Assembly: GCA_020444065.1 (NCBI GenBank)
Contig: JAHLLQ010000010.1
Span: 11,677 to 75,676, forward strand
Direction: 5' to 3'
DNA from: a bacterium
Lineage (GTDB): Bacteria > Sumerlaeota > Sumerlaeia > SLMS01 > JAHLLQ01
Length of the DNA stretch: 64,000 nt
Shown here: positions 32,435-56,611 of the stretch, one piece after another
Numbering within the stretch: position 1 is the first letter of the stretch
How the letters are laid out: each line of letters opens with the position of its first letter
Notes under the pieces: model-generated
Seen by the model: the letters and a program-made list of their open reading frames with translations, nothing else
What the model was told of the DNA's origin: nothing
Database searches by the model: none
Made by a program: the position numbers and the translations under genes

Positions 32435-34984
32435 TCAGGGCTGGTACTTGATGATGACAGCGCCGAAGGTGTGAAGGCGTGGGATCAGGAGGCGGACGAA
32501 GCCGTCGGTCTGTTCGAAGTCGACAGGGAAGGGCTGCATCATCGCGGGATCGTCGGGGCTGCCGTAGAGGACCTGCGTGACAGTGGCATTCGCCGGCAGA
32601 TTGATGGCGATTTCTTCGTTTGTGAGCGGTTTGACGTCGGGGCGAGGGGCGTTCCAGGTCATTTGCTCGCCGTTGTTGAGGAGCGTGACGGTGATTTCGC
32701 CGCGGTCGTTCTGGAATCCGCGAACGACCGTTCCCGGCATGTAGGACGTCGTTTCGTAATTGGCGACGTTGCGCCCGTGATTCCGTCCAAACAGCAGGGC
32801 GTCGAACATGTTGTAATCGCGAACGATTTGAACGTTTTGCAGCGGGATAGCCACGTTGTCCGGATAGTAGAGCGAGTTGAGGGCGTGCATCTGGTGGTTC
32901 AATTCATCGGGTTCGCCGACGACCATGAGGGATCCGCCGCCAGTCATGCAGATTCCCATCATGAGGCGCAGGCTGTCCGCGGGCCAGTAGGGGGGATCGG
33001 TGAAGCCGGCGTCGGGCGGGTACATTTTGAGGACGACGCGCTGACCGGCCGGTGCGCGGTGGCGATAGCAGATGTCGACGGTGTCTTCGAGGCCGCCCTT
33101 GCAACCGGCCCAATTTTCGATGAAGATGAAGTCGGTGATGTGGTACATTTTCTCGATTCCGAACTCGCAAACGCAGTTGAAGGAAACCGCCGCGTCGGAC
33201 TTCACGGCGTGAGACATTTCGTAAACGTCTTCGATGAACTCGGCGATGATTTCGGAGAGAAGGCGGCCGCTGTGTTTGCTGCCTTCGGAGTAGTAGCGTT
33301 CGTTTGCGGGATGGCCGTAGCTGTCGACTTCGAAGCCGTCGAAGGAGACAAGATCGTCGGGCGATTTGTCCAGTGTCCGGCGGAGTTCCTTGATGATGTA
33401 ATCGTGCCAAGGCGTGTCGTCGGCGATGGCCATCAGCCAGAACCAGACGGGCTCGCCGGCGGCTTTGGCTTCAGGGACGGTCGTGATGCGACCGTTGAAG
33501 ATGCGCGGTTCGCCGCCTGGCGTTGTCATCGGGTAGGGATGGGCTTCGTAGACGCTCTTCGATGCGGCATAGGCAGCGACATAAGCGATTGAGAGAATGC
33601 CGCGCTGGTGACCGGCGTCGATTTTGCCCTGAATATCTTTCGCGTAGACCTTGTTTCCAAAGAAGGGTTCGAACTCGTAGACTTCTTCGGTGGGCGCATA
33701 GTCTCCGTGAGCTGGGAAGTAATCGTAGAACTCGACGCCGTTGATGAACAACTTCGCGAGCATGTCGGCTTTCTTCGCGTAGTTGTCGGAAATCCGATTC
33801 CAGTTTGCGTAGAAGCCATAGCGCAAATCGTCGGGGATATCTTGCACGACGGGAAGGACGATGTAGTCGCGATCGAGAATCTTGTTGTTCTGGTCGAGGA
33901 GGACTTCCAGGCCCAGAGGCCCCTCGCGATCGGGCGTGGAGAGAGGGACGATCAGTTCGTTCTGAGCGATCGGAATTGTGGTCGAAAGCGTTGTAACAAG
34001 ATCGTTGGAGATGACGAGGCGAGCGTTGCATCCGTCGGACGGGAGTTCCCCAAAGCGAACAAGGAGCTGGTTCTTCTCGCCGGGCTTGATCCAGGTCTTT
34101 TCCAGTTCCACCGAAGAGATTCGCGGGCCGGTCATTGGGCGATCGAAAGCGGGGATTTTCGTTGGGTTGAGTTCGCGACCGGGAACTGTGCGGACGTATC
34201 GATCGGGAAGCAGAGAGCGCAGATCGAGCACCGTATTCTCGTCGACGTCGCGTGTATTGACGCTCGGATCGGCGAACCACTCAGCGTCACCGCTCGAGTC
34301 CTCGGCGACGAACTTGTAGCGGATCACGCCGGGCGAGAGATCGATCTTGCGATACCAAACGTCATTGGGGCCGGGGAACATGCGGAAGGCCGGATCATCA
34401 ACGACTCCATCACGATTGTTCCCCCAGGAGTTAAATGAACCGGCGAGGAAGACTCGTTCTGCATCGGGTTTGTGGTAAGTGAAGAGGAAAGCCTTGCCGT
34501 CATCGATCGGTTGTGGTGCGGCTGCGGTATTGAGGGAGATGTTGTACTTCGTGGCGAACTCCTGCGGCGTCATACCGGCTTCTTCGAGGACCGGGGCAAA
34601 GTAGATGGTCTGCTCGCCGGGCGATTCGATTTTGAAGCTCTTGCCCGGACCCACCCAACCATCGCCTGGATCGGCGTTCGTGTCGCAGGCCCATTCGTAG
34701 AGATGGCCCTTGCCCATGGGCAGGTTGACTGCGATCGACCACACGTGATCGCCGGCCGTCGCATCGCCGTGGGTTCCATCGTCGTACAGGGGATAGCGTT
34801 TGTAGTCATTCCAACCGGAGGCGAACCTGCCGGTCTCGGGATCGAAGTTGGCAGCGTAGTAGACGCGGTCGAGAGGTTGCTCGCGGAATGTGTCGTCGTA
34901 GACAAGCGTCACGGACGCGGCGGAGGCCGCCGTGCCGAGCAGCATGAACAGGCCAAGCGATTGAAGTGCTCCGTTCCTTCTCAT
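32435..34984 (-). CDS. Secreted multidomain carbohydrate-active protein: N-terminal CBM-like domain, CBM48/E-set-like domain, TIM-barrel with GH66-like DGFEVD...ENW motifs (paralog A)
   Basis: Signal peptide. SGWNDYKRYPLYDDGTHGD..AGDHVW block shared with two paralogs. WYRKIDLSPGVIRYKFV (CBM48-like). FDGFEVDSYG and IFIENW ~75 aa later. Start ambiguous (34984 or 35014). Confidence 0.5.
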   Translation of the reverse strand: MRRNGALQSLGLFMLLGTAASAASVTLVYDDTFREQPLDRVYYAANFDPETGRFASGWNDYKRYPLYDDGTHGDATAGDHVWSIAVNLPMGKGHLYEWACDTNADPGDGWVGPGKSFKIESPGEQTIYFAPVLEEAGMTPQEFATKYNISLNTAAAPQPIDDGKAFLFTYHKPDAERVFLAGSFNSWGNNRDGVVDDPAFRMFPGPNDVWYRKIDLSPGVIRYKFVAEDSSGDAEWFADPSVNTRDVDENTVLDLRSLLPDRYVRTVPGRELNPTKIPAFDRPMTGPRISSVELEKTWIKPGEKNQLLVRFGELPSDGCNARLVISNDLVTTLSTTIPIAQNELIVPLSTPDREGPLGLEVLLDQNNKILDRDYIVLPVVQDIPDDLRYGFYANWNRISDNYAKKADMLAKLFINGVEFYDYFPAHGDYAPTEEVYEFEPFFGNKVYAKDIQGKIDAGHQRGILSIAYVAAYAASKSVYEAHPYPMTTPGGEPRIFNGRITTVPEAKAAGEPVWFWLMAIADDTPWHDYIIKELRRTLDKSPDDLVSFDGFEVDSYGHPANERYYSEGSKHSGRLLSEIIAEFIEDVYEMSHAVKSDAAVSFNCVCEFGIEKMYHITDFIFIENWAGCKGGLEDTVDICYRHRAPAGQRVVLKMYPPDAGFTDPPYWPADSLRLMMGICMTGGGSLMVVGEPDELNHQMHALNSLYYPDNVAIPLQNVQIVRDYNMFDALLFGRNHGRNVANYETTSYMPGTVVRGFQNDRGEITVTLLNNGEQMTWNAPRPDVKPLTNEEIAINLPANATVTQVLYGSPDDPAMMQPFPVDFEQTDGFVRLLIPRLHTFGAVIIKYQP

Positions 34985-35020
34985 ATCGTCACCTCTCTGT
35001 TTGTTCCCTACCACTTCATG

Positions 35021-36175
35021 TCATTTGCGCGCCAGAAAATCCCACACGGCAGATGGGGCTGTCGTCTCGTCGAAGTTCAGGGTCTTCCACTCACCCGAGG
35101 AGTCGCAGAAGGCCAGGGTTGGTACACGATAGACTCCCATTTGAGCCAGTTCGGTTTGGAAATCGGGGTCGTCTCCAGACAGGAAGAAGAGCGTCTTTCC
35201 TGCGAGGAGTTTCTTTGCGTCCTCGTGAAGGAGGTACTTGCGTTCGAAGGCCCGGCAGGCAGTGTTTCCGTTCAATCGCACGTAGACGAAGACCGAGCCG
35301 CTGTTCTTGATCGCCTGGGCGACGCCTAGAGGGCTATAGGGCTGCCAGGAGTTGTTGGTCTGTGAGGATGTGTTCGATTGTTCGGCGGCCGGTGTGCGCA
35401 GGCGATCGAGGTTGATGATGGAATTGCCATCGCTGTCGGCTTCACGAACGTTGGGGTCGCCGATCCAGTCGAATTTGCCGTCGGTCTTCTCGAGGACGAA
35501 CTTGTATCTCTGCGGGCCGGTTGGGATATCGATCGCCTGGTACCAAAGACCGTTCGGAAGCGATTCCATCAGGCACGAGATATCTGTGATGACGCCGCTT
35601 TCGTTGTTGGCGAATTCGTTGAAGTCGCCTGCCAAGTAAACGCGGCGGGCCGATGGCGCCCAGACGCGAAAGAGAACCTTGCCCTGGTCGTTGAGGCGAA
35701 CGGGCGGGCCGGTGGTGGTCATATCGACGCCATATTGCTTGCTGAGTTGTTGGGGGGAGAGGTCGCTTTCGGGCATGATGGAATACGCGAGGACTTCGCG
35801 CGGCGTATCGTCGGGTACGCGGAAGGATGGGCATGGCCCGAGCCAGCCGTTAGAAGATTCCGAATCGGCATCGGCAGCCCATTCATATGTCTGTTCGGCG
35901 TTGGGCTGAATATTCAGTTTCCATCCCCAAACGTGGTCGCCGGCTTGCCGATCGCCATGCTGGCCGTCGTCAAAGAGTGGGAAACGTTTGAAATCGTTCC
36001 ATCCGGAATCGTACTCACCGGTACCCGGGTGCACATTCAGAGCACAGAAGATCTGTTCGTGAGGTGTCGGGTTTCTGCTGTCGTCGAAGATCAATGTCAC
36101 CTCGGCAGCGGATGTCGTTCCGGCCAATCCCAGGATGGCCAGAGCGGACAGAATCGATGTGGCTGTCTTTCTCAT
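35021..36175 (-). CDS. Secreted paralog B: same N-terminal CBM-like + CBM48-like domains, C-terminal thioredoxin-like domain, no catalytic barrel
   Basis: Signal peptide MRKTATSILSALAILGLAGTTSA. SGWNDFKRFPLFDDGQHGDRQAGDHVWG; LWYQAIDIPTGPQRYKFV. Start fixed at ATG 36175. Confidence 0.5.
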   Translation of the reverse strand: MRKTATSILSALAILGLAGTTSAAEVTLIFDDSRNPTPHEQIFCALNVHPGTGEYDSGWNDFKRFPLFDDGQHGDRQAGDHVWGWKLNIQPNAEQTYEWAADADSESSNGWLGPCPSFRVPDDTPREVLAYSIMPESDLSPQQLSKQYGVDMTTTGPPVRLNDQGKVLFRVWAPSARRVYLAGDFNEFANNESGVITDISCLMESLPNGLWYQAIDIPTGPQRYKFVLEKTDGKFDWIGDPNVREADSDGNSIINLDRLRTPAAEQSNTSSQTNNSWQPYSPLGVAQAIKNSGSVFVYVRLNGNTACRAFERKYLLHEDAKKLLAGKTLFFLSGDDPDFQTELAQMGVYRVPTLAFCDSSGEWKTLNFDETTAPSAVWDFLARK

Positions 36176-36195
36176 GTTGATACTCCCGGTCGTGA

Positions 36196-37089
36196 TTAAC
36201 CTTTCAATCCCGTCATGGCGATGCCTTCGATGAACGTGCGCTGTGTGAAGAAGAAGAGCACGACAATCGGCATAACCACGAGGGTTGAGGCGGCCATTAG
36301 CAGGTTCATATCGGTGCCGCCGTGTTTGCTTTGGAAGTGTTGCAGGCCAAGTGCGAGCGTGAACTGGTTCTGGTCCGTGAGGTAAATCAACGGGCCCATG
36401 AAGTCGTTCCACACCATCATGAAGGTGAAGAGTGCAACGACGGTGATGGCGGGTTTTGCGAGTGGTGCAACGATCAGGACAAATGTTCTGAACGGTCCGC
36501 AGCCATCGATTTCGGCGGCTTCGGTCAGGTCCTTCGGGATCGTCATGAAGAACTGGCGCAGCAGAAAGATGTTGTAGGCCGAACCGAAGAAGGCGGGCAC
36601 CCAGAGGGGCATGAATGTTCCGACCCAGCCAAGCGAGCGGAAGATGGAGTACATGGGAACCATGAGGACGGGGAAGGGAATCATCATGGTTGCGAGGCTG
36701 GCGGCGAAGATGGGATCGCGTCCGCGCCAGTTCACACGCGAGAACCCATACGCCGCGAGCGCGCAACTGACAACTGTGCCGCCGACACAGAGCACGCAAA
36801 GGTACAGCGTATTCATGGCGTATTTCCAGAAGGGGATCTTCTGGGTGGCTTCGATGTAGTTCTGCCAGCGGAATGGACTTGGGATCCATTGCGGCGGGAT
36901 CTGCATGGCCTGAGTGAGTTCCTTGAAGGACGTGGTCAGCATCCACAGGAATGGAAAGATGAAGAGAACCGAGAAGAGGATGAGCACGGCGTAAAGGGCA
37001 ACGCGATTAGCGATGTGCCCAAAATCAACGTTCTTCTGGCGTGGCGCGGCGGCGGGCGCATTCATGACGAGGCTCTCAGGTTCCGGCAT
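36196..37089 (-). CDS. Carbohydrate ABC transporter permease (MalG/UgpE-like)
   Basis: 6 TM helices. EAA-loop region and C-terminal LVVMPIVVLFFFTQRTFIEG. Confidence 0.85.
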   Translation of the reverse strand: MPEPESLVMNAPAAAPRQKNVDFGHIANRVALYAVLILFSVLFIFPFLWMLTTSFKELTQAMQIPPQWIPSPFRWQNYIEATQKIPFWKYAMNTLYLCVLCVGGTVVSCALAAYGFSRVNWRGRDPIFAASLATMMIPFPVLMVPMYSIFRSLGWVGTFMPLWVPAFFGSAYNIFLLRQFFMTIPKDLTEAAEIDGCGPFRTFVLIVAPLAKPAITVVALFTFMMVWNDFMGPLIYLTDQNQFTLALGLQHFQSKHGGTDMNLLMAASTLVVMPIVVLFFFTQRTFIEGIAMTGLKG

Positions 37090-37957
37090 AGTAGAGGTAC
37101 CTTCTTGAGACGAAATGTGCGACCGTGGTGAGCACCGCGATCATGAGGAAGAGAATCAATGCCATGGCGCAGGCGTAGCCCATGTTGAGGTATTTGAATG
37201 CGTGATCGAAGAGGTACATGGTGTAGAAGAGAGTGGAGCGCGCGGGGCCTCCGCCGGTCATGACGTACGGGACGGCGAAGACCTGGAGGACGCCGATGCA
37301 GCCCATGATGACATTGAAGTAAATGACCGGCGAGATCATCGGCAGCGTGACGTTGGCGGTTTTTTGCCACCAGTTGGCGCCGTCGAGCGTTGCGGCTTCG
37401 TAGAGGGCTTTGGGAACGTCCTGCAAGCCGGCGAGGTAGATGACGACCGCGTTGCCGACTCCCCAAAGACCGGTGAGGACAAGCGCGGGTTTCGACCAGG
37501 AAGTATCGCCGAGCCAATCGGGTCCGTTAATGTGTGCGAGGGAAAGCGCGTAGTTGATGACGCCGAATCGGCCGTTGAACATCCACTGCCAGAGGATCGC
37601 GAGCGCGACAAGCGGGACGAGCGACGGCAGGAAGAAGATGGTACGGAAGACGGAGCGGCCGATGACCTTTGCGTTCAGCAGCAGGGCCAGTCCGATGGAG
37701 AGAACCGTGCCGAGCGGGAGCGCGAGGAGGGCGAAGAAAACCGTGTTCCACAACGATTGCCAGAAGACCGGATCGGTGGAGAGGTCGCGGTAGTTTCCGA
37801 CGCCGATGAAGATCGGGTCCTTGAGCACGGAGTAATCGCAGAAGCTGTAGTAGAGCGCCATGCCGGACGGCAGGAGAATGAAGCAGGAGAGGCCGATCAG
37901 CCATGGCGCAATAAACAGAAGACCGGTGATGAGGCTGTTTCGTTCGCGTTGGGTCAT
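37076..37957 (-). CDS. Carbohydrate ABC transporter permease (MalF/UgpA-like)
   Basis: Polytopic. EAATLDGANWWQKTANVTLP EAA motif. Overlaps downstream permease start. Confidence 0.85.
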   Translation of the reverse strand: MTQRERNSLITGLLFIAPWLIGLSCFILLPSGMALYYSFCDYSVLKDPIFIGVGNYRDLSTDPVFWQSLWNTVFFALLALPLGTVLSIGLALLLNAKVIGRSVFRTIFFLPSLVPLVALAILWQWMFNGRFGVINYALSLAHINGPDWLGDTSWSKPALVLTGLWGVGNAVVIYLAGLQDVPKALYEAATLDGANWWQKTANVTLPMISPVIYFNVIMGCIGVLQVFAVPYVMTGGGPARSTLFYTMYLFDHAFKYLNMGYACAMALILFLMIAVLTTVAHFVSRRYLYYAGT

Positions 37958-39318
37958 TCTTCCGACCTCCACTCTTCTTTGCGTTCCTCGGCGATGCGTT
38001 TCCATTGTTGGAGCGCTCGGTCGAGTTTCGGTTGGATGCGTTCGCGCACGACGGTCAGGGCCTCGTCGGGTTCGGCTTTATCGCGCCAGATGAGGTCGAA
38101 CGCGTTGGTGAATTCATCGCGGAGTTCGTTGAAGATCTGCGTCTTGGGCGTGTAGCGCGCATTCGGCGATTCGGCCAGGTTGCGGAAGACGCGGATATAA
38201 GGATTTGGGTGTTGCTTGTAGAAATCTTCGGAGACTTCGCGCAGGGGTGAGAACTTGCGCTGGCCGAGGCAGAGCATTTCCATATTCTCCTGGCGCTGGA
38301 CGAACTTGATAAAGTCCCACGCTTCCTCTTTGTGGCGCGCGCCGCGTGGAATGACGAGGACGTCGGCTTCGCAGATCGTGACATCTTTCAGTTCCGGGTC
38401 GCTGGACGGGAACGGCGCGACGGCCCAATTGAGGTCGGGATTGTACTTTTCGACGAAGTTCGCCATCCAGACGCCCTGGAGCTCCATCGCGACTTTGCCG
38501 GAGATGAAGAGGTTTTGCGCGGAGCTGAACTGGCCGCCGGCGGACTGGAAGACCTGGAGGGTCTTGAAGCCGTACTTCTCGGGGTAGCTTTGTACCCAAT
38601 CGTAGGCGGCGATGTTCTCGGGCGAGTCCGTGACGATCTTTGTTCCATCTTTGCTGACGAGGCGACCGCCGAACCAATAGCACCAGCGCTCGTTCCACCA
38701 GCCGGGTTCGGTCGGGCTGAAGCCGAGCTGGGTGATCTCGCCGTCTTCGTCGATCTTGGTGAGCTTCGCGGCGTACTCGTCGAGTTCTGCGATCGTGCGC
38801 GGCGGCCGATTGGGATCGAGGCCGGCTTCGCGGAACATGTCTGTGTTGTAGTGCAGCGCGAGTGTGGCGGGTGTGCTCGGCAATCCCCAGATGAAACCGT
38901 GGTGTTCGCATTGCTCGCTGATGACGGGCAAGTAGCGGTCCATGTCGAAGCCGTCGCGTTCGATCAGTCCATCGAGCGGTTCGAGTGCGCCCATATCGGC
39001 GTAGGTGTAGAGTCGCCAGGCCCAGAAGCCGGCGACGTCGGGCGGGTTGCCTCCGGAGGTTGCGAGCAGGAGTTTCTGCTCGATCTGGCCGGTGCTGAGG
39101 AATTTGACGAAGACCTTGTCTTGCGATGCGTTGTACTTGTCGACGACGGCGCGCATCGCGTCCTTCTCGAAGTCCTCCCACTTTTCCCAGTACTCGACGA
39201 TGACGCGGCCATCCTCTGTGCGGTCGGGTTTTTCGCGCACGCAGGAGGTCAATCCAGTCATCGCGGCGACGAGCACCAGGCCGGCCAACAGAACGTTGAT
39301 TCGATTCTTGAGGCGCAT
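37954..39318 (-). CDS. Extracellular solute-binding protein (family 1) of sugar ABC transporter, lipoprotein
   Basis: Signal peptide/lipobox LTSCV. SBP_bac_1-like length and motifs. Start at ATG 39318. Confidence 0.85.
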   Translation of the reverse strand: MRLKNRINVLLAGLVLVAAMTGLTSCVREKPDRTEDGRVIVEYWEKWEDFEKDAMRAVVDKYNASQDKVFVKFLSTGQIEQKLLLATSGGNPPDVAGFWAWRLYTYADMGALEPLDGLIERDGFDMDRYLPVISEQCEHHGFIWGLPSTPATLALHYNTDMFREAGLDPNRPPRTIAELDEYAAKLTKIDEDGEITQLGFSPTEPGWWNERWCYWFGGRLVSKDGTKIVTDSPENIAAYDWVQSYPEKYGFKTLQVFQSAGGQFSSAQNLFISGKVAMELQGVWMANFVEKYNPDLNWAVAPFPSSDPELKDVTICEADVLVIPRGARHKEEAWDFIKFVQRQENMEMLCLGQRKFSPLREVSEDFYKQHPNPYIRVFRNLAESPNARYTPKTQIFNELRDEFTNAFDLIWRDKAEPDEALTVVRERIQPKLDRALQQWKRIAEERKEEWRSEE

Positions 39319-39425
39319 GGAATACGTCTTCCGAAAACGGGATGTGCTAACTTGTTCAAACCTTGATCGTGGTCGATTGTTCGGGAGGTGCAATCCCTGG
39401 TTCGCGATTCCGCGGCATAGTGCGT

Positions 39426-41267
39426 TTATCCGCCGGCGCCGGAGAGCGATTCCTTTTCGGATGTCGCATCGGCCAGGCCGTAGGCGCCGGTTCCGTATGC
39501 GATGGCATGGGCGACGAAGCCTGCGCAGGTTGCGAAGTGCTCGCCGCTTTCGGGAAGGCCGGTTTCGACGTTGATGCTCTCACAGGCAATGCCGTTGTCC
39601 ATCGGCGCACGGCGCAGGAGATCCAGTCCCTGTTCGACGCGGACGCCGCTGAGGATGCTGTTGCAGGCGCTGAGGATCCAGGGGTGCGGATCGCCGTCGG
39701 TGTGGCGATTACCGAGCTCGCTGAACGGTCCCGGCATGCAGTAGGGGTAGGCCTTGGAATAGAGGTGCTCGACCGTGCGGCGGAAGGTCGCGGCGTCTGC
39801 GCTGCACAACCCGTAGTAGGGGAGCAGAAGCAGGCTGCCGGCAGCCTCGTCGTACATCTCGCAGGAGCCCTTCAGGTCGGCGGCCCACTGATAGAGGCCG
39901 TTGCGGACAAGGTGGTGATCGATCGCCTTGGCAATGGCGTCGACTTCCGCGCGCGCCCATTCGGCTTCTGCGGGCTGGGTTTCTTCAAGAATCGGAATCA
40001 GCATGCGGAGGGTCTGGCGCACGAGTGCGTTGTTGTACGTCAGGACGTCGCGTCCGCCGACGATCAAGTCATCGGTCGGCATCAGTTCCGTGCGGTAGAG
40101 GGCTTCGCCGTCGACACGCCAGGACTTGAGTCGGCGAAGGAGTTCGCGAATTCCGGCGGCAATCTGAGGTTCGCGCCAGGCGGGGTCATCGGGATAAAGG
40201 GCGCACCACTGGCCGACGGCGAGGAGAGGGGCGACGAGTTCGTCGAGCTCGAAGCCATACTCGAGAATCTGGCCGTTGATCTGGCGACTGTGAATTCCGG
40301 CGTGCGGCAACTGCGGGCCGAAGGCGTAGCGAAGCAGTTCGCGGGCGTGCTCTCGGTCGTTTCGCAGAAGGAATGGATACAACCACAACAGCGAGTCGCG
40401 ATCCCAGTAGGCCGCGGACACGTAGTAGCGATGGCTGCGGGACGTCATGGAAACGACACGGCTGGTATCGAGAGTGCGCGCCATGGCATAGAACCGTGCG
40501 AAGTGCGCGTTGCGGTTGGCTTTCGCGGCCAGCCGGTTGTCGCCGGGCACCGGGATGGTGCGTTCAGCCAGCCATTCGACGGTCCGGCGCTGCCATTCCT
40601 TGATGGGGACGCGGTGGGTCTCCAGGTCGGCGGCGCGGGCTCCCACGCGAGACAGCCCCAGGCCAACGACGAGGTCCGCACGGCCCTGGCAATCGACCTC
40701 GATCGAGAAAGCGGAGAGCGTTTCGACGGGCCCGGTGCCGGCATTGAGGCTGTGCTCGCGGCCATTGGCGTGCAGCCGGTAGTCGGCGCCGCCCGGGGAG
40801 CGAAGAGAAATCGTAAAAAGGAGCGTTCCCGCGAAGATTTCGATCACGACGCCTGGGGTGTGAGACCAGTTGAAGTGCTGGATCCGGCAGACCCAATCGG
40901 GCAGCTCGTGGCGGACGTTGATCGTCTGGAAGATGCGGCCGATGTTCATGGTGAAGCGCGCCCCGCGGGGGCCTTCGGGGCCGCGATAGACGAAGAAGCG
41001 CTGGCGCGGCGGGGCGAAGACGCACCCGGCGCGGCCGCCATCGGTGTGCTCGAAGCACGGGATCCAGTGCTGGAGGAAGTGCCACTTCCAGGCGTCGGGT
41101 TCGGTCGCCATGGCGTCGCACGCCAGGAAAGGGGCGCCGTCGCCTTCGACGTCGATCAGCCCGTCGGCCTTCTCGAGGACGATGTTCATGCCTTCGATGG
41201 CGCCATCCGACTCACGAACGGTCGGGAGGGCGATGTACTCGTTTCCGGTTGGGTGATAGGTGGTCAT
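39426..41267 (-). CDS. (alpha/alpha)6-barrel glycoside hydrolase, GH125/GH63/GDE-like (family uncertain)
   Basis: 613 aa, no signal peptide. N-terminal beta-rich region then helical barrel with YYVSAAYWDRDSLLWLYPF (W-x-RDS motif as in GH125). Confidence 0.45.
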   Translation of the reverse strand: MTTYHPTGNEYIALPTVRESDGAIEGMNIVLEKADGLIDVEGDGAPFLACDAMATEPDAWKWHFLQHWIPCFEHTDGGRAGCVFAPPRQRFFVYRGPEGPRGARFTMNIGRIFQTINVRHELPDWVCRIQHFNWSHTPGVVIEIFAGTLLFTISLRSPGGADYRLHANGREHSLNAGTGPVETLSAFSIEVDCQGRADLVVGLGLSRVGARAADLETHRVPIKEWQRRTVEWLAERTIPVPGDNRLAAKANRNAHFARFYAMARTLDTSRVVSMTSRSHRYYVSAAYWDRDSLLWLYPFLLRNDREHARELLRYAFGPQLPHAGIHSRQINGQILEYGFELDELVAPLLAVGQWCALYPDDPAWREPQIAAGIRELLRRLKSWRVDGEALYRTELMPTDDLIVGGRDVLTYNNALVRQTLRMLIPILEETQPAEAEWARAEVDAIAKAIDHHLVRNGLYQWAADLKGSCEMYDEAAGSLLLLPYYGLCSADAATFRRTVEHLYSKAYPYCMPGPFSELGNRHTDGDPHPWILSACNSILSGVRVEQGLDLLRRAPMDNGIACESINVETGLPESGEHFATCAGFVAHAIAYGTGAYGLADATSEKESLSGAGG

Positions 41268-41300
41268 GAGATCTCTCGATAGGGTTCAGTTGGGGTTTGC

Positions 41301-41843
41301 TTACGGTCCGTAGCGGTGGATATCGCCGAAGGAGACGGTGCCGTTGGTCGGGTCGTACTGCACGGGATCGGGGCTGGACTGGAGGCTTTCCTCGAGATCG
41401 GGGCCGAGGCTTTGGAGGCGCCACTTGGCGCTTTCTGCGCCCTCGTGACCGGGGAAGGACTGCCAGACCTGTGGCAGGACGGTGGCGGTGTCTTCTTCGC
41501 AGAGGTAGTCGAAGGTCCGCAGGGGATTGTCGTTATTGGACAGATCCGGGAAGGGGTCCTTTGGAATGGAGGTCATGTAGGCGACCGGGGTGGTGAGGCG
41601 GACCAGTCGTTCGGCGAAGGTCAGGAAGTAGCGCGGGGTGCCGTTTTGGGAGGGCGGGTAGTGGTTGTGGTCGACCGCGTAGGATTCGACCGCCGTAGCG
41701 AGCGAGCGCATGTCTGCCTCAGCGCGGCTGACCTTCGAGCGGGTCTGGGCTTCGAGGAAGTTCGGGACGGCGATGGCCGCAAGAATAGCGATGATAGCAA
41801 CAACGATGAGGAGTTCGATCAGAGTGAAAGCTCTGCGATTCAT
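41301..41843 (-). CDS. Prepilin-type N-terminal cleavage/methylation domain protein (type II pseudopilin-like)
   Basis: MNRRAFTLIELLIVVAIIAILAAIAVPNF class III signal. Confidence 0.6.
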   Translation of the reverse strand: MNRRAFTLIELLIVVAIIAILAAIAVPNFLEAQTRSKVSRAEADMRSLATAVESYAVDHNHYPPSQNGTPRYFLTFAERLVRLTTPVAYMTSIPKDPFPDLSNNDNPLRTFDYLCEEDTATVLPQVWQSFPGHEGAESAKWRLQSLGPDLEESLQSSPDPVQYDPTNGTVSFGDIHRYGP

Positions 41844-41884
41844 GGGGCATTCCTCCAGCGGTTTTGTCGAAGCGCTTCAACCCA

Positions 41885-41900
41885 TGGGCGTCGTTTTTGG
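41885..41900. promoter_or_regulatory. Predicted LacI-family operator palindrome (GTCGAAGCGCTTCAAC)
   Basis: Near-perfect 16-bp palindrome around central CG, 40 bp upstream of the pilin/GH/ABC operon start. Confidence 0.55.
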
Positions 41901-41984
41901 AGCGTTTCTGCGAGGGCGGGAAGACCGGGCTTTGGTCGGGAGAATGGGATGTTTGCTTGAGGAGCAGCGCTGACGTTAGGTTTC

Positions 41985-42000
41985 GTGTAAGCGCTTCAAC
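41985..42000. promoter_or_regulatory. Predicted LacI-family operator (GTGTAAGCGCTTCAAC)
   Basis: Second copy of the palindrome, 100 bp further upstream. Confidence 0.5.
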
Positions 42001-42155
42001 TGGGCGCGTCAAGAGAAAGTCGTTGGGGGCGTGCGGAAAGGTCGCGGGGGAGACCGAGGGGGCGGAAGCGGTTGGATTCGCCAGGCGTGAATATGGGGGT
42101 GTCAGGAACGTAGGAGGGGCAGAGATGAGCACACCTGGATGGACGGAGGCGGAGT

Positions 42156-42380
42156 ATGGGTCTTCTGATGCTGGTTTGCGTGGCGATCGTGTACTATCGA
42201 GCCGCGGAACATGATGGGAAGTCGGGGGGACTGGCCGTTCTGGCGTGCCTGGGATTGTGGTGGCTGCTGGGTTGGGCGGGGCTCGGGACGCTGCTGACTT
42301 GCGTGGCGCTGCTGGTGATTCTCTTCCTGGTGTATCCGACGCTGCAGGTCCTGGGAGAGCTGCTCGTAAAGGGCAAGTGA
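42156..42380 (+). CDS. Small hypothetical membrane protein (74 aa)
   Basis: Two predicted TM helices. Weak evidence. Confidence 0.3.
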   Translation: MGLLMLVCVAIVYYRAAEHDGKSGGLAVLACLGLWWLLGWAGLGTLLTCVALLVILFLVYPTLQVLGELLVKGK

Positions 42381-42430
42381 AGCCGAGCGTTTTCTGTTTG
42401 ACAGCCGCGGGGTGTGGGGCTACGGGTACT

Positions 42431-42446
42431 GTTGAAGCGCTTACAT
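42431..42446. promoter_or_regulatory. Predicted LacI-family operator (GTTGAAGCGCTTACAT) upstream of the lacI-family gene (autoregulation)
   Basis: Same palindrome, 49 bp upstream of ATG 42495. Confidence 0.5.
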
Positions 42447-43615: not shown

Positions 43616-46240
43616 TCAGTGGGTCATCCAACCTTCGGCGCCGTGTACGGTGACGACGGGTTCGCAGGGAGAGGCGCCGTTGACAACGACATCGTCGATC
43701 TCCCACGGGCCGTCAGATTCGACGGAGGAGTCAGAGCCCCAACGCCAGGCGAGATGGATCGTCTCGTCGGCGTAGGAGCTCAGGTCGACGGCGACCTTGC
43801 TCATTGATGCATGCGTTCCGGTCCATGCGGACATGCCGCCGATCGGGCTGCCATATTCGGACGGGATCGTGGCGTCGTAGCCGCCGCTCGTGATTTCGGA
43901 TGTGAGCTGGCTCCAACTTGTCCCGCCATTCGTGGAGATCTCGAGAACGCCGCCGTCAAAGCCCTCTTCGAAGTAGTAGCGATGGTAGAATTCGAGCTGT
44001 GTTGCACTGGTAAACGGTCCGGCGACGAGACGAACATCTTCGATTTCAGGTTGCGGGGGATCGAAGCTGACGACGTGTGTGCCGCTGACGGCGGCGGTGC
44101 TTGTGCGAATCGCCCAACGATTCGTGCCTTGCTGCGCACTGGTCGTCCAGGCGTCGAACGTGCCTTCGAAGTCATCTGAGAAGATGCCGGAGCTTGGGTG
44201 TTTGAGAGCAAGCGACTCGACGTTCGAACCGCCGGTGTAGGTGAGGTTCAGGGAGAAGTCGATTTGGTCGCCGCAGGGGCGGTCGGCGCTGACGAAGAAT
44301 TCGAATGGTATAGAGCCATTGGCGGTCGCGCCGTTTGCGAGATCGGGATAGGTGGCGGTGTTTGTTTGCACAGTGATGTTTGGATCGGTCGTGGAGAGAA
44401 CGGCGGTGATATTCTGGGCGGTGGCCTCGGTGCTGAGCAGTTGGATGTTCATGAAGATTTGTTCGCCGGGTTCGATGACGCCGTTGTTGTTTCCTGCGCC
44501 GTCGCTGAAAGCCCAATCGTTAATGACAGGGAGCGGAAGAACATCGCAGTTCGGTCCGGTCGGGATGGTGTAGGTAAGAGTGGCGGTTTCCGAGGCTGAA
44601 ACGATTGCAAGTTGGAGCTTGATGTCGTTGCCGCAGGGGACGGTGCTGTCGACGGAAATGGCGTAGGCCGTGGTGTTTGTGCCATTTGCGCCGGATGCCA
44701 GATCGGGGAACTGGGAACTGGCCTGGTCGACCGTGACCCCAGAAGTCTGCGATGACAGTGTTCCGGAAATCCCCGTGATGGCGGAGGTGCCGGTGTTCTT
44801 GATCGACATGGTCAGGAGGATTCCGCTTTCGCCGCGTTCGATGATGCCATCGCCATCGCCGGCGGAGTCGTCGACGACGGGATCGCCGTTCTTGGCGAAT
44901 GCTCCGGTCCCGAGGCCATCAATGGCCGTCGCGCCGGTGTTTCCGGGATCGAGCCAGTCCTTCAGACGGCTGGTGGAAGAACCGCCGCCTTCCCAAGACT
45001 TGTAAAGGCGTCCATACCAGTCGGAACTGTCATTTCCGCAGGCCGCATATCCGCCGGTGAGGACGGCGACGATGCGGTGGTCGGGATTGAAGAGGGGAGA
45101 TCCGGAGGAGCCGCCTTCGGTGGTGCCAAGATCCCAATCGGTAATGCGAATGTGCGTGCTGTTGGCGTTGACCGTAGTATCGAGATAGTCGGTGATGGTC
45201 GTTTGATCGTTTTCGAAGCTGATGCGCTTCTCTTCAACGCTCGGGTGGTGAATGCCGACGACGGAGGGGGGGGCGACGTCGGTGACATCCCAGCCGGAGC
45301 GGAAGATGTCGTAGGCTTCCGGGATGGGATCATCGAGTTCGAAGAGGCAGAAGTCGGAGGATTCGTAGGAGGCGCGGTAGATGGCGCCGGTGTTGTATTG
45401 CGAGCGGGAGCCGTCGCCGTTGCTGCCGCTGGCCGCGCTGCCGACGGGGCGACAGGTGGAGTTCTCGTAGTTCCAATACACCACGATCGAGGGGGCGTTG
45501 CTGGAATTGATGCCGCAGTGATTTGCCGTCAGGAAGTAGGGAGTGAAATCGTTGGCGGTGTTGTTGACGGCTGCGCCGGAGCAGGTATCGATGCCCTGGA
45601 TGGTGTAGGCGCCGACGGAGCTGATCTGGTCGCGCCAGCCGTCGCCTTCGGGGCAGATGACGTCGACGTTACAGGATCCGGAGCGAAGCCCAAGTGCATC
45701 GGCCGGCGTGCGGAAGCCGTGACTGACTTGGGCGACTTCGAGTTGGAGAGCCTTCTCGGCCTTTGCAGGGAGGTTGACTTCGATGACGAGTTCTTCGCCG
45801 TCGACGATCGGGGTCCAGAGCTGCCTGTGCTTCTCGTTATCGGCGGCGGTGAAGGGGCCGTAGATTTCTTTGCCGTCGGGCGAGTAGATGTAGAGCTCGC
45901 CGCCTGCGGGCATGAAGTACGGGATGAATCCAATGTTCAGGTTTTGTGCGTCGGTGGAAAAGATGCGGGCACGCCAGAGACGCGACCCATCGCCGAGCGT
46001 TTCCCAGGTTCCGTCGGACTTGGCGTCGATCGCTGTGCCGATGGGTTCGGCAAAACGAAACGGCCCCATGCCGGTGTCAGGGGCCGCTTTGAGCAATGCG
46101 GCGTTGTTCTGTGTTGGCATGACGAAGGTCTCGACGGTGTCGAGGGGCGCTGCGCCTTTGATTTGCGAAGGCAGAGATGCTGCCGATGCCGAGGATGCCA
46201 GTATAAGAATGACGGCGAGGAATCGTAGTACGTTCTTCAT
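43616..46240 (-). CDS. Secreted trypsin-like serine protease (S1, lysyl-endopeptidase-like) with C-terminal repeated beta-sandwich domains
   Basis: Signal peptide MKNVLRFLAVILILASSASA. His motif TANHC and Ser motif GGSSGSPLF. C-terminal repeats. Start at ATG 46240. Confidence 0.6.
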   Translation of the reverse strand: MKNVLRFLAVILILASSASAASLPSQIKGAAPLDTVETFVMPTQNNAALLKAAPDTGMGPFRFAEPIGTAIDAKSDGTWETLGDGSRLWRARIFSTDAQNLNIGFIPYFMPAGGELYIYSPDGKEIYGPFTAADNEKHRQLWTPIVDGEELVIEVNLPAKAEKALQLEVAQVSHGFRTPADALGLRSGSCNVDVICPEGDGWRDQISSVGAYTIQGIDTCSGAAVNNTANDFTPYFLTANHCGINSSNAPSIVVYWNYENSTCRPVGSAASGSNGDGSRSQYNTGAIYRASYESSDFCLFELDDPIPEAYDIFRSGWDVTDVAPPSVVGIHHPSVEEKRISFENDQTTITDYLDTTVNANSTHIRITDWDLGTTEGGSSGSPLFNPDHRIVAVLTGGYAACGNDSSDWYGRLYKSWEGGGSSTSRLKDWLDPGNTGATAIDGLGTGAFAKNGDPVVDDSAGDGDGIIERGESGILLTMSIKNTGTSAITGISGTLSSQTSGVTVDQASSQFPDLASGANGTNTTAYAISVDSTVPCGNDIKLQLAIVSASETATLTYTIPTGPNCDVLPLPVINDWAFSDGAGNNNGVIEPGEQIFMNIQLLSTEATAQNITAVLSTTDPNITVQTNTATYPDLANGATANGSIPFEFFVSADRPCGDQIDFSLNLTYTGGSNVESLALKHPSSGIFSDDFEGTFDAWTTSAQQGTNRWAIRTSTAAVSGTHVVSFDPPQPEIEDVRLVAGPFTSATQLEFYHRYYFEEGFDGGVLEISTNGGTSWSQLTSEITSGGYDATIPSEYGSPIGGMSAWTGTHASMSKVAVDLSSYADETIHLAWRWGSDSSVESDGPWEIDDVVVNGASPCEPVVTVHGAEGWMTH

Positions 46241-46460
46241 TTCCCACTCCCGATAGTGAATAGCCAGCCTGCAATAGGACACAGTCTTCGTGTGTCGGAC
46301 GGCGGTCAATAACGAAGATGGACGACGGGAAATGTTCTTGTCGGGCCAAGAAGGTAACGATAGCACTCTGTGGAAAGACCGATTCAAATTGGACCGATAA
46401 CAGTTGACGCGCACAAATGGTAACGATAACTCTCGGGGCAACATTTTGTGAGAGATTCCC

Positions 46461-49400: not shown

Positions 49401-50204
49401 GGGAACAATCAGGAGTCGAGTTCCGAAGCGATCAACTCGTGGGTGGGTGTTTTCCTGCTTGGCGAAGCGATGGGCGATGCGGATATGGCGGCTGCCGGGG
49501 CGATGGGATTCGCGATCGAGAGCCGCGCTGTGCAGGAGTATTGGCTCGACATGTACGGGACGAACTGGCCGGCGGCTTACGACAAGTCGGTGGTGGGGAT
49601 TCTCTTCGATGGCGGAAACGCGTTCGCGACGTACTTCAGCGGCGATCCTGCTTGGATTCACGGCATCCAGTGGATTCCGAGCTCGCCGACGTTCCTGGCG
49701 TACCTGGTGGAAGATCCGACATACGCAGCGCAGCACTACACGGACATGATGGCGGAGCGTGTGGACTTTGGTGAGTCGGCGACGATTGCCGGCATGGGTT
49801 CGAGCTTGGGGAACCTGGTGCTTGGTTACCTGCTGATGTTCGATGCGGACCAAGCCGCGGCGGAGTTGGATAGCTTGTATGCCGCGAACGATCCGGTGGC
49901 GACGGATGTGTTCACCGGTGGGCGTTCGTACTACTACACGCACTCTATGCGCACATTGGGTGCGTATCAGTTCGACTATCACATGAGTCTGCCGATGGGC
50001 GCGGTGTTCCACAACGATACGACGGCCACAACGACGTACTTGGCGTGGAATCCGACTGGGACAACCCAACAGGTTGAGGTCTTCCAAAGTGGGTCCAGTG
50101 TGGGGTGCTTCACCGCCGGTCCGGGGGAACTGACCGCGGTGACATCGCTCGATCCGACCTGCACAGGCGCCCAGGTGGGAGAGTGGCGGGTGCTGAACGA
50201 CTAG
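46461..50204 (+). CDS. Secreted GH81-family endo-beta-1,3-glucanase with N-terminal accessory domains (incl. LamG/ConA-like)
   Basis: Signal peptide. DHHFHYGYLTHSAAIL and NQESSSEAINSW blocks characteristic of GH81. Confidence 0.7.
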   Translation: MTLFRLVSSAFLALALAASAQAESINVNFTGNGGATVSGTAGVIPAANWNNVGGTTGTQSGLLDSAGATTGAAVDWQAQASWFSGHGDPSENGKLLDGYLAVQTDAYDYDVTVTGIPYSSYDVYAYFGNNSAGADGVVRINGSGTQFFYQTVGASFPGFVEVTERTSDSPQTGNFVLFENVVGATLTIQQANYNLGQDSGLMGFQVVDSGAPDPTLTVDASSFLTNETLNVHFAYGPGGADNNVVAVPHGSAASATPNFRYYVGGGTSPSTGEVSGTLPLANAGGLGLGWYDLYFLSDAAGSSILAGPVTIFVSPPDPVVVSVGPAGSYASTVPSHEGSGPMEMLYEREIYVTPDRLGDPIPTNDWWTDLIGSQYAGQMWAYPLVVSADAGGVNVYSPRTWDGGGAWMNVDSPIQIHGEVVPDPDPSFVLIADFEDATYPIDWTTTGTAFGSGPATGALAGQSAVSGWTGNGFVNSFNGGDVSMGALISPDFTIQSDYIHFQIGGGNHPDLAAVQLVVGGSVVRSSTGADSENLTWDYWDVSALAGQTAHIEIIDFVSGGWGHILADTIFQSDDLNAPTSTGTTFTAADARAADWGDWTVTARVAQTETKYIDVTFGHGLPYTWLEFEDVDPILVVDNATTFFDLGGSTVSMPTTTDYVGIDFNGKPWGLFLPDNTMIDYSGTEITLTFAGAETWAVLAALPVAADLAAFYATAFAKPVDSVYSWTYDPTQGTVTTNWELMTSPLKGSGTDLIQGWIPHHYRVTTRDFAFNGLEYDTPRGRMQCATGRQFEIVYPFNGILPHIPQPQISGLANDYLASRMNNYISDYAGVTNYGAETYFGGKDMLRFARYLSMAHSTGHAAESTLEATLRGALEDWLTYTPGETEHYYAYYPNWKALVGFNESFGSSAFTDHHFHYGYLTHSAAILGLLDPSFLTDYGEMASLVAKEYANWDRADTRFPFLRTYDIWAGHSYAGGLSGPTGNNQESSSEAINSWVGVFLLGEAMGDADMAAAGAMGFAIESRAVQEYWLDMYGTNWPAAYDKSVVGILFDGGNAFATYFSGDPAWIHGIQWIPSSPTFLAYLVEDPTYAAQHYTDMMAERVDFGESATIAGMGSSLGNLVLGYLLMFDADQAAAELDSLYAANDPVATDVFTGGRSYYYTHSMRTLGAYQFDYHMSLPMGAVFHNDTTATTTYLAWNPTGTTQQVEVFQSGSSVGCFTAGPGELTAVTSLDPTCTGAQVGEWRVLND

Positions 50205-54168: not shown

Positions 54169-54263
54169 GATCCCCGCAGATTCCATTCAAGCTGGCAGGA
54201 TGTAGCCCTGAGGGCGCGGGTGCCGTCAAGAGGGACGCGCGTGGATGCCGTGCGGGATAGACG

Positions 54264-54334: not shown

Positions 54335-56611
54335 AGACAATCGGACAGTGGTGCGGATGATGGGAGAATTGCGGTGGCGCAGACAACTTTGAGACGGCTT
54401 CGATCGGCAATCGTGGGACTGGCGCTTGTGGCGCTTGCACCGGTGGCCATGGCGCGGACAGCGACGGTGTATTTGCGCTACGACAATTCGGATTCGAAGG
54501 CGCCGTATCCCCAGATGTTTGCGGCGGGTTCGTGGGACGAATCGGGGGCGTTCGACGATACCTGGAGCGGGTTCGAGCGGTTTGCGCTGTCCGACGATGG
54601 GCTGCACGGCGACGAGGCGGCAGGGGATGGAATCTGGGGCGGCGTGGCCGAGGTGCAGGCCGGAACAGGCGCGACGTTCATGTTTGCAGCGGACTGCGAC
54701 CAGTGCGGCGATAACGGGTGGATCGGGATCGGCCAGACGTTCGAGGTTCCGGACGATGTGGCGGCGATGGCCGTGGATTTCCACCTCGGCATTCTGTGGA
54801 TGCGGACGATGGGGTCGGTGGGCTGGATGATGGTGGGGTCGCCGTCGAAGGATGCGGTGCGCGGTGAATACGATCGGCCATTGCATCCTGTTTGCATTCC
54901 CTGCGCGGGAACGCACCCGACGGGGTTGGCGATCGCGCGCCTGATTCCGTGGCAGACGAAGGTGTCGCAATCGGAAACGGGGCGCATGCAGGTGGAGTTG
55001 AACAGCGCGGCTCGAATCAATCCCGGCGACGAGGTTCGGCTGGAGTTGTACTCGGTGGAGGGTGCGCTGCAGCGGCAGTATCAGAAGACGGCGGCGGCGC
55101 TGGTGACATTCGACATCGAGCCCTGTCTGCTGGAAGGCGGGTATCACTGCATCGCGACGATTGTGAACGGCGACAACGAGTACGATCGCGCGGATCGGGT
55201 GTACTCGGTCGTGAACGACATGTGGAACGATGTGCGGTATGGGTTCTACACGAACTTCGGCAGCGTCGGCGGAGACTATGTAAAGAAGACGGATATTCTC
55301 GTCGATTTGTATATTAACGCGATCGAGTACTACGACTACTTCCCGGCGCACGGAGTCTATGCGCCGACCGAGTTGATCTATAACGCGGAACCGTTCGGGG
55401 GGACGATCTATCTGCAGGACGTACTCAATAAGATGTCGGAGGCGAGGGAGAAGAACATTCTCAACATCGCGTACATCGCGGCCTACGCCGGTGCGCCGGA
55501 TCTGGTGAATTCGATTTCAAATTCCCATCTAACGAACTCGGCGGGGAACTGGCTGGCGTTCTACGGCGGCGAGGTTGGGATCGATTTCGAGTTGGACGGT
55601 CTTTGGTACTACCTGACGGCGTTTGCGCCGGATACTCCGTGGCGGACGTATTTGTGGGAGGAGTTGACGAGGACGCTGCAGGACAACGAAGGCGACTATG
55701 TTGCTTTCGATGGGTTTGAAATCGATACGTATGGATACACCGGAGATTACTATTCGGCGGGGAGTGCGTATAATGGGACGCCGATGAATACGATGCTGCC
55801 GCAGTTCGCGGCGGACGTGCGGGACCTGGTTCATTCGGTTAAGTCGTACGGCATGACGACGATGAATAACCTGGCGGAGCAGAATATCCTGCAGATGTTT
55901 GACAAGGTGGATTTTCTGTTTGTCGAAAACTGGAAATGGCACAAACCGAACTACCACCAGGTTGTCGAAATGGTGTACTACAACAGTAAGGAAAGCCGGC
56001 AACGGTTTGTTTCGAAGTCCTATCCCGCAGATACCGAAATGAATGTTACGGCGTGGCCCGCGGAGAACTTGCGCTATCTGATGGGCTCGCACCTGGCGGG
56101 AGGTGGAAGTTTCATGGTTGCCGGCGAGCCGCGGGAGTCGACCGGTCAGATCGGCGGGCTGAATTCTCTCTACTATCCGGACAACCAGCCGCAGAGCGAA
56201 GAGAATTACAGCATCATTCGGAATTACAATAAACACGACGCGGCACTGTATCGATACACGCATGGGAAGAACGTCGCGCGGCCGGGGAACGACCTGGCAA
56301 TTCCGGATTGCATGATCTATAAGACTCGGCCGGAGGACAGCAATTCGTACGTGTGGAACATCCTGCACAATAAGGACAATTGGCTGTGGGCGGTGCAGAA
56401 TAGCGATCCGGGCGTGATCGAGATTTATGAAATCACTTACGCGATGCCGGCGGGAGAGGCTCCCGAGGCGGTCTATTGGGGGACGCCGGATAACGACTGG
56501 ATGGTGTATCCGGTGGCGCTTGATTGGGAGTTTGAAAATGGGAATCTGCGGTTTGCGATTCCGGAGTTGCATTACTACGGGACGCTGATTGTGAAGTTCA
56601 GCCGACTGTAA
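54314..56611 (+). CDS. Secreted multidomain carbohydrate-active protein, paralog C of 32435-34984 (CBM-like N-domain + GH66-like TIM barrel)
   Basis: Signal peptide (LVALAPVAMA). SGFERFALSDDGLHGDEAAGDGIWGG. NDVRYGFYTNFG...YINAIEYYDYFPAHGVYAPTE aligns with paralog A. AFDGFEIDTYG and LFVENW. Track start is TTG 54314; GTG at ~54371 is more plausible. Confidence 0.5.
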   Translation: MQSKRLRRQSDSGADDGRIAVAQTTLRRLRSAIVGLALVALAPVAMARTATVYLRYDNSDSKAPYPQMFAAGSWDESGAFDDTWSGFERFALSDDGLHGDEAAGDGIWGGVAEVQAGTGATFMFAADCDQCGDNGWIGIGQTFEVPDDVAAMAVDFHLGILWMRTMGSVGWMMVGSPSKDAVRGEYDRPLHPVCIPCAGTHPTGLAIARLIPWQTKVSQSETGRMQVELNSAARINPGDEVRLELYSVEGALQRQYQKTAAALVTFDIEPCLLEGGYHCIATIVNGDNEYDRADRVYSVVNDMWNDVRYGFYTNFGSVGGDYVKKTDILVDLYINAIEYYDYFPAHGVYAPTELIYNAEPFGGTIYLQDVLNKMSEAREKNILNIAYIAAYAGAPDLVNSISNSHLTNSAGNWLAFYGGEVGIDFELDGLWYYLTAFAPDTPWRTYLWEELTRTLQDNEGDYVAFDGFEIDTYGYTGDYYSAGSAYNGTPMNTMLPQFAADVRDLVHSVKSYGMTTMNNLAEQNILQMFDKVDFLFVENWKWHKPNYHQVVEMVYYNSKESRQRFVSKSYPADTEMNVTAWPAENLRYLMGSHLAGGGSFMVAGEPRESTGQIGGLNSLYYPDNQPQSEENYSIIRNYNKHDAALYRYTHGKNVARPGNDLAIPDCMIYKTRPEDSNSYVWNILHNKDNWLWAVQNSDPGVIEIYEITYAMPAGEAPEAVYWGTPDNDWMVYPVALDWEFENGNLRFAIPELHYYGTLIVKFSRL

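Follow-up and report, generated by a model that had tools for sequence, protein, structure and literature searches.

The window examined here, a 64,000-nucleotide stretch of DNA from a bacterium of the uncultivated phylum Sumerlaeota, contains a gene for a LacI-family regulator that diverges from an operon encoding a sugar importer and glycosidase-like proteins, and the DNA between the two carries several palindromes that resemble the operators of that family. The locus raises the question of whether those palindromes, together with similar ones found at a distance upstream of another glycosidase-like gene, are the sites through which the adjacent regulator controls both its neighbors and itself. 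A sequence-only reading of the same DNA had proposed precisely such a regulon, comprising the operon, the regulator and a distant paralog of two operon genes; that proposal is now backed by a phylogenetic footprint in orthologous loci and by a weight matrix derived from foreign genomes, and remains a prediction. Five sites (s1 to s5) are accordingly predicted, with a probability of roughly 0.85, to be operators of the adjacent LacI-family protein, which would exert sugar-released repression at three transcription units.

The regulator and its predicted targets

The assignments previously made for the genes of the operon and for the LacI-family gene were upheld by searches against Pfam and NCBIfam, and are collected together with the coordinates of the remaining features in Table 1. 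The catalytic domain of the GH66 family (PF13199) was detected in paralog A (E 2e-33) and in the unlinked paralog C (8e-22), while paralog B was found to be 39% identical to the N-terminal, choice-of-anchor-X-like and CBM48-containing part of paralog A. The solved dextranase 5AXG was matched by a profile built from this GH66-like clade, but only at 2.4e-13, and with the NCBIfam model for endo-dextranase the GH66-like targets scored 57.6, far below its cut-off of 730; single-sequence searches of the PDB with the GH66-like and GH125-like proteins returned either nothing or one marginal match. Paralogs A and C represent a divergent GH66-like (dextranase-like) subgroup of putative activity.

Table 1. 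Positions of the features discussed in the text (window coordinates, unless a locus is named; bits and ranks refer to the ortholog-derived matrix)
Feature	Position	Strand	Basis or score
Predicted target operon, seven genes	32435..41843	-	Gene order kept beside LacI orthologs
Paralog A, GH66-like, 859-aa ORF	32435-35014	-	Pfam
Paralog B, choice-of-anchor-X-like N-terminal domain and CBM48, without catalytic domain	~35021-36175	-	
Permease 2	36196-37089	-	Pfam/NCBIfam
Permease 1	37076-38005	-	Pfam/NCBIfam
ABC solute-binding protein	37954-39393	-	Pfam/NCBIfam
GH125-like (alpha/alpha)6 protein, 613 aa	39426-41267	-	Pfam/NCBIfam
Pseudopilin-like protein (GspG/pilin-like), first gene of operon	41301-41843	-	Pfam/NCBIfam
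Candidate operator s1, GTCGAAGCGCTTCAAC	41866-41881		16.6 bits, rank 3 in window
Candidate operator s2, GTGTAAGCGCTTCAAC	41985-42000		15.8 bits, rank 4
-35-like TTGACG, putative operon promoter	42007..42012	-	Sequence reading and offset analysis
-35-like TTGACA, putative LacI promoter	42399..42404	+	Sequence reading and offset analysis
Candidate operator s3, GTTGAAGCGCTTACAT	42431-42446		17.5 bits, rank 2
LacI-family regulator, 339 aa	42495..43514	+	Pfam LacI HTH (PF00356) and Peripla_BP_1/3/4
Candidate operator s4, GCGCAAGCGCTTGAAT	54263-54278		13.8 bits, rank 5, weakest of five
Candidate operator s5, ATCAAAGCGCTTACGC	54319-54334		17.6 bits, rank 1
Paralog C, GH66-like, predicted secreted	54374..56611	+	PF13199, signal peptide
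Pseudopilin-like gene, locus L053	9134-9670		
Pseudopilin-like gene, locus L057	1993-2535		
Pseudopilin-like gene, locus L058	3657-4202		
Pseudopilin-like gene, locus L059	1269-1847		

The first gene of the operon, located directly behind the candidate operators, encodes a pseudopilin-like protein with a prepilin N-methylation motif (MNRRAFTLIELLIVVAIIAILAAIAVPNF...), and a gene of the same type also leads the operon in four of six orthologous loci (L053, L057, L058 and L059). To our knowledge, a substrate-regulated pseudopilin within a glycan utilisation operon is unusual outside PVC-type lineages.

The regulator gene begins at an ATG codon at 42495, rather than at the GTG codon at 42414 that opens the mechanically called reading frame, within which the helix-turn-helix (HTH) starts at residue 34; the corrected start is indicated by a database protein (P0001) that is likewise 339 residues long and 100% identical to the regulator. 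Its recognition helix (AGVSIGTVSRV) and hinge (ARGLA) are invariant among 12 orthologs, and hinges of the ARGLA type contact the central CpG step in the solved complexes of PurR and CcpA; the invariance of both elements fits a common DNA specificity, and a central CpG, among the orthologs. The closest solved structure is that of CcpA bound to cre DNA (1RZR, E 4e-53). The regulator nevertheless fails the CcpA equivalog model (TIGR01481 ccpA), with 191.5 bits versus a cut-off of 442.35, and the PurR and RbsR models of NCBIfam outscore that of CcpA, each remaining under its own cut-off. The C-terminus of the protein (...VVRESA) ends where those of PurR and CcpA end and does not extend into the tetramerisation helix of LacI, and for that reason the regulator is probably a dimer. 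No second LacI-family gene was found among the approximately 38 large open reading frames of the window that were scanned.

Palindromes in the window and beside orthologous regulators

Each of the three 16-mers originally reported occurs exactly once in the 64-kb window, and two further copies of their AAGCGCTT core, at 54267 and 54323, define s4 and s5. The position of 41885 previously given for s1 was in error by 19 nucleotides, its true location lying just outside the range that had been described. All five sites are even, 16-bp palindromes centered on AAGC/GCTT with a central CpG, and this observation sustains the LacI-operator architecture that had been attributed to them: approximately 90% of LacI-family motifs are even palindromes with a central CG, while 72% of such regulators are autoregulated (Ravcheev et al. 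2014, PMC4052901). Once the gene starts have been corrected all five are also intergenic, at distances of 22 (s1), 141 (s2), 48 (s3), 95 (s4) and 39 (s5) nucleotides from the respective start codons; sites of the family lie mostly 30-140 bp upstream of start codons (PMC4052901), a range that s1 and s2 just miss. The similarity between s1 and s2 is wider than the 16-mer itself, in that both display GGTTTyGT..AAGCGCTTCAAC followed within 0-3 nt by TGGGCG (41860-41895 and 41979-42010), which suggests either the local duplication of one operator or a recognised site that may extend beyond 16 bp.

The AAGCGCTT core is found six times in the window versus 1.09 expected, a count reached in one of 100 shuffled sequences, and the degenerate 14-mer TGNAAGCGCTTNCA, with at most two mismatches allowed, is found eight times versus 2.3 expected, a count reached in none of 100. 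The sixth core, at 18552, lies within a Bac_transf (sugar-transferase) coding gene, has non-matching flanks and scores only 10.4 bits on the matrix described below. Among 22 occurrences of the central hexamer AGCGCT in the window, six are located in the two intergenic regions of the targets, which total 838 bp (binomial P 3e-7), although one of those six, at 41966, is not operator-like.

Six loci from other Sumerlaeia genomes that encode orthologs of the regulator (L051, L053, L055, L057, L058 and L059; 53-69% identity) were then compared. In five of the six, the LacI-family gene diverges from an operon with the order (pseudopilin)-GH125-like-...-GH66, and in the remaining one (L055) it diverges from a lone GH66 gene. 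A candidate comparison protein with 43% identity (P0015) was set aside, as its gene resides in another context (URO-D, GH38). When the counts of all 64 palindromic hexamers in these six intergenic stretches (2,001 bp in total) were compared with those in the remaining 86.7 kb of the loci, AGCGCT was the sole strongly enriched hexamer between the LacI orthologs and their divergent operons: it occurs 16 times versus 0.8 expected (P 6e-16) and is present in all six regions, while the next best hexamer reached P 0.03.

Those 16 foreign AGCGCT sites served as the sole training set for a symmetrised, 20-bp weight matrix, with the consensus ATGTCAAAGCGCTTTGACAT. Applied to the window, this matrix returned as its five top matches s5, s3, s1, s2 and s4, in that order, followed by a match of 12.7 bits inside a UbiA coding gene. 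Second-order Markov simulations (150 sequences) gave an expectation of 0.43 matches per 64 kb at 13.8 bits or more, with a maximum of three in any simulation; at 15.5 bits or more, four matches were observed in the window versus 0.09 expected. The maximum score of a simulated sequence had a mean of 13.4 bits and a 95th percentile of 16.9, and most of the information in the matrix resides in the AGCGCT core, so that no single site is individually significant. The interior of the operon contains no match above 10.7 bits, and all five sites are confined to two non-coding stretches, one between LacI and the operon and the other ahead of paralog C, which together make up 838 bp, or 1.3% of the window. 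The sites exist, exceed chance by a wide margin, occur only in the relevant non-coding DNA, and recur in other genomes next to orthologs of the regulator and to GH66 paralogs.

Upstream of the LacI start, at a distance of 15-46 bp, a site is present in the window as well as in four of the other six loci. Autoregulation is not universal, because the site of L051 is degenerate and L058 possesses the core only. At the spot expected for such a site in L051 (9934-9953) is found a different palindrome, CTGCGTGACCCGTTACGCAG, in which the GCGT.A/T.ACGC arms are kept and the AAGCGCTT core has been replaced, and autoregulation there may have been lost or altered; the corresponding spot in L058 holds a bare AAGCGCTT core that overlaps TTGACC and scores below 10 bits. 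Searches beyond these loci were less specific. With the LacI protein as a query, genome contigs yielded only matches of up to 35% identity, from Bacillota and Actinomycetota, and no orthologs, while a search of metagenome contigs with the ortholog alignment yielded a best match of 38% identity and, with patterns that are too generic, a motif upstream in 4 of 75 loci; the latter would indicate only that this type of motif occurs with other LacI homologs.

The intergenic region itself measures 651 bp in the window, whereas those of the six orthologous loci measure 317-350 bp; its length in the window is approximately doubled by a hydrophobic reading frame of 74 residues between s2 and s3 (42156-42380, plus strand; MGLLMLVCVAIVYY...LVKGK). 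A public gene caller agrees with that frame; its product has no Pfam match, and the shorter intergenic regions of the orthologous loci have no called counterpart.

Geometry at putative promoters, and the unlinked paralog

The distances from the beginning of a TTGAC box to the center of the neighboring palindrome fall into two classes. In the first (17-21 nt), represented by s2, s5, the sites of L051, L058 and L059, and the LacI site of L053, the candidate operator lies over the spacer and a -10-like TAC... hexamer, and the offset is exactly 20 at s2, s5, L058 and L059. Thus s2 overlaps the spacer and the -10-like TACACG of the putative minus-strand promoter of the operon, and s5 overlaps the spacer and the -10-like TACGCA that follow a TTGACA box (54307-54312) before paralog C. 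In the second class (38-41 nt), to which s3 (41) and the sites at the LacI promoters of loci L055 and L059 belong, the palindrome approximately coincides with the expected transcription start, and s3 is the predicted autoregulatory site. Both classes are consistent with occlusion of promoters that are themselves putative. A strict sigma-70 scan of the two target regions called no promoter, because the -10 hexamers are poor, so that the promoter positions are drawn solely from the TTGAC boxes and the clustering of their offsets.

The remaining two sites are s1 and s4. The first, s1, precedes the ATG codon of the pseudopilin-like gene and its ribosome-binding site (GGAGGA, 10 nt away), has counterparts in L053 and L057 at 15 nt from the start of the pseudopilin-like gene, and is probably located in the 5' UTR as a predicted, conserved second operator. 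Terminator-like matches near s1 on the plus strand were dismissed, as no plus-strand transcription is expected there and the matches overlap the palindrome itself. The second, s4, is centered 56 bp upstream of the center of s5 and is predicted to be its probable auxiliary operator.

Paralog C is 35% identical to paralog A over the catalytic region. Its mechanical reading frame starts with a TTG codon at 54314, which would place s5 within coding sequence. An in-frame GTG codon at 54374 is preceded by a GGGAGA ribosome-binding site at a spacing of 6 nt and followed by a signal peptide (...LALVALAPVAMA / ...RRLRSAIVGLALVALAPVAMA), while an independent gene call (P0121, 732 residues, 100% identical) implies a start at 54413. 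Both alternatives are at least 39 nt past s5, as the sequence-only reading had anticipated when it placed the true start downstream of the site at 54319. The same reading had described the sites before this gene as weaker; their cores are indeed present and s4 is the weakest of the five, but s5 is the top-scoring site of all.

The claim that the distant paralog belongs to the regulon has gained support from three comparisons: (i) s5 is identical in all 16 positions to the candidate operator that precedes the GH125-like gene of L051; (ii) a GH66 paralog on another contig of the same metagenome-assembled genome (L061) carries, directly upstream in intergenic DNA, the two best matrix matches of 22.5 kb (19.1 and 14.9 bits); and (iii) the best homolog of paralog C in L055 (P0123, 46% identity) is the very gene that diverges from the LacI ortholog. 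The proposed membership of an unlinked paralog is thereby independently replicated, through the L061 sites and the arrangement of P0123. A GH66 homolog (L062) has no upstream site and is uninformative, as is L063 with regard to upstream sites, since it includes no promoter region.

Several neighboring genes complete the description of the window. Divergent from paralog C is a gene for a 134-residue protein (53782-54186, minus strand) with a match to Cpn10/GroES (E 2e-10) limited to residues 14-62 of its N-terminal half, and no adjacent GroEL gene was observed; the upstream ATG of this Cpn10-like gene is 76 nt from s4, in the intergenic region common to both genes, so that its control by the repressor is conceivable as well. 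The interval from the LacI gene to paralog C (43616-53542) contains genes for a trypsin-like/lysyl-endopeptidase-like protease, a 1247-residue GH81 protein (of the beta-1,3-glucanase family) and a 1073-residue GH31 protein, none of which has the motif upstream; the mechanical reading frames 43616-46624 (minus) and 46461-50204 (plus) overlap by 164 nt, and in the public gene call the protease is reduced to 874 residues. Near the opposite end of the window, a RES-domain protein (2137-3168, plus strand, E 2.5e-18) follows two reading frames without Pfam matches (135-1175 and 1175-2140), and this locus may be a RES-type toxin module.

The proposed switch and its alternatives

The regulatory model that best accommodates the five sites is drawn largely from the family, in that protein binding, the sign of regulation, the promoter positions, the dimeric state and the identity of the inducer are all inferred from what is known of its members. 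Without inducer, the repressor on s2 would cover the spacer and -10 element of the operon promoter, while on s1, which immediately precedes the ribosome-binding site of the pseudopilin-like gene, it would act as a downstream roadblock or as a cooperative partner of s2; on s3, over its own start site, it would produce negative autoregulation; and on s5, with the help of s4, it would cover the promoter of the unlinked paralog C. Binding of an oligosaccharide to its periplasmic-binding-protein-like domain would then release the DNA, and the inducing sugar would be one made by the secreted GH66-like enzymes and brought in by the ABC transporter of the operon. As a guess, the inducer might be an alpha-glucan or dextran-type product. 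Genes of the GH13 (alpha-amylase) family with CBM48 or CBM6/CBM35 domains adjoin the LacI/GH125-like/GH66 cluster in L058 (5630-7717) and L063 (5362-7854), and these point weakly to an alpha-glucan substrate.

The palindromes might instead be cre-like boxes, read by a global CcpA-like regulator or by another LacI paralog rather than serving as local operators, and many sugar operons would then be subject to carbon catabolite repression through them. Such a reading draws on the fact that AAGCGCTT is the center of the high-affinity cre consensus of B. subtilis, TGAAAGCGCTTTCA (PMC3463425), on CcpA being the nearest solved homolog of the adjacent protein, on the appearance of this type of motif ahead of a few unrelated LacI homologs from metagenomes, and on the possibility that a LacI-family paralog encoded elsewhere in the genome could share so common a motif. 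Against it stand the failure of the adjacent protein to reach the CcpA cut-off, the absence of any site at the GH81, GH31 and GH113 genes in the 64 kb scanned, and the association of the motif with the LacI ortholog group and its GH66- and GH125-like targets in seven loci, as well as the presence of a site at the regulator's own promoter, an arrangement commoner for local than for global members of the family (PMC4052901). Control by a global regulator or another paralog is consequently judged to be distinctly unlikely.

Two other classes of explanation were considered. The possibility that the palindromes form RNA hairpins affecting the stability or translation of a 5' UTR is suggested by s1 and its L053 and L057 equivalents, which reside in a probable 5' UTR at 2-10 nt from the Shine-Dalgarno sequence, and a functionless origin by duplication is suggested by the additional flanking similarity of s1 and s2 (GGTTTyGT...CAAC...TGGGCG). 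Most of the sites, however, lie on or ahead of putative promoters and would escape transcription, and what has been conserved is the bases rather than the potential for pairing, as illustrated by half-sites such as ATCAAAGC/GCTTACGC, which are imperfect and show no compensation; furthermore, a 6-bp hairpin with no loop or a loop of four nucleotides is weak. A chance origin of the sites is excluded by the enrichment of the hexamer in the orthologs, the matrix ranking and the simulations, and taken together the explanations based on RNA structure, chance or duplication are very improbable. AGCGCT and RGCGCY are, in addition, known type II restriction sites (of the AfeI/HaeII type), and a distribution shaped by avoidance elsewhere could in theory result from restriction-modification or methylation. 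There is no sign of avoidance in the window, where AGCGCT occurs 22 times against an 8-mer shuffle expectation of about one, and the conserved flanks extend to positions -7 and +7 at promoter sites beside the LacI gene in seven genomes, making this explanation hardly credible.

As operators of the adjacent LacI-family protein, the sites closely resemble those of local LacI/GalR sugar repressors of the type compiled in RegPrecise (PMC4052901): the motif is palindromic, of even length (16 bp) and centered on CG, located mostly 22-141 bp upstream; the regulator diverges from an ABC-transporter/glycosidase operon, has a site at its own promoter and is accompanied by several operators per region; and the predicted regulon is small and includes an unlinked paralogous hydrolase. 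It differs from the known local systems in its uncultivated host phylum, in its divergent GH66-like and GH125-like targets, and in its pseudopilin-like lead gene. With CcpA it shares a near-identical HTH and hinge (TIYDVAREASVSMATVSRVVNG...ARGLA versus TIYDIAKMAGVSIGTVSRVMNG...ARGLA), and s2 (TGTAAGCGCTTCAA) and s3 (TTGAAGCGCTTACA) share, by eye, the core and most of the flanks of cre (WTGNNARCGNWWWCAW / TGAAAGCGCTTTCA, PMC3463425), a match that represents a likeness of mechanism only. Unlike CcpA, it resides beside its own targets, is apparently autoregulated, and has sites in the window that are confined to one functional gene set; dependence upon HPr-Ser-P as a corepressor is unlikely. The regulator therefore appears to read DNA in the manner of the cre/CcpA type yet to behave as a local regulator. 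The pairing of sites, with one overlapping a promoter and one displaced (centers 119 bp apart for s1-s2 and 56 bp for s4-s5), recalls lac O1/O2/O3 and gal OE/OI. In contrast to LacI, the regulator has no C-terminal tetramerisation extension and the spacing of its paired sites varies among orthologs (119, 145 and approximately 157 bp); looping of DNA via a tetramer, which was considered, is unsupported for those same reasons.

Full-text literature searches found no description of a Sumerlaeota regulon and no match to the exact motif string, and a term search within the main Sumerlaeota genomics paper likewise yielded no regulon and no mention of LacI, GH66, dextran or pilins. The predicted system is a textbook LacI-type local sugar regulon, notable only for its uncultivated phylum, and adds no new mechanism of repression. 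That it goes beyond a routine sugar switch, with a cre-type repressor in Sumerlaeota co-inducing a pseudopilin-like protein with divergent GH66-like and GH125-like enzymes, is a doubtful proposition with a small chance of being correct; if true, a substrate-induced pseudopilus (T2SS or type IV pilus-like) would secrete the enzymes or capture the glycan, and the placement of an operator against a ribosome-binding site would reflect a distinct form of two-site roadblock control. What the analysis provides for the Sumerlaeota, a phylum without a cultured model, is a testable operator motif and a predicted regulon, the first such prediction among the literature searched. It helps to annotate a divergent clade of glycosidases, with the starts of two genes (LacI and paralog C) corrected, and it ties three GH66-like paralogs, a GH125-like protein, an ABC importer and a pseudopilin-like gene into one predicted functional unit.
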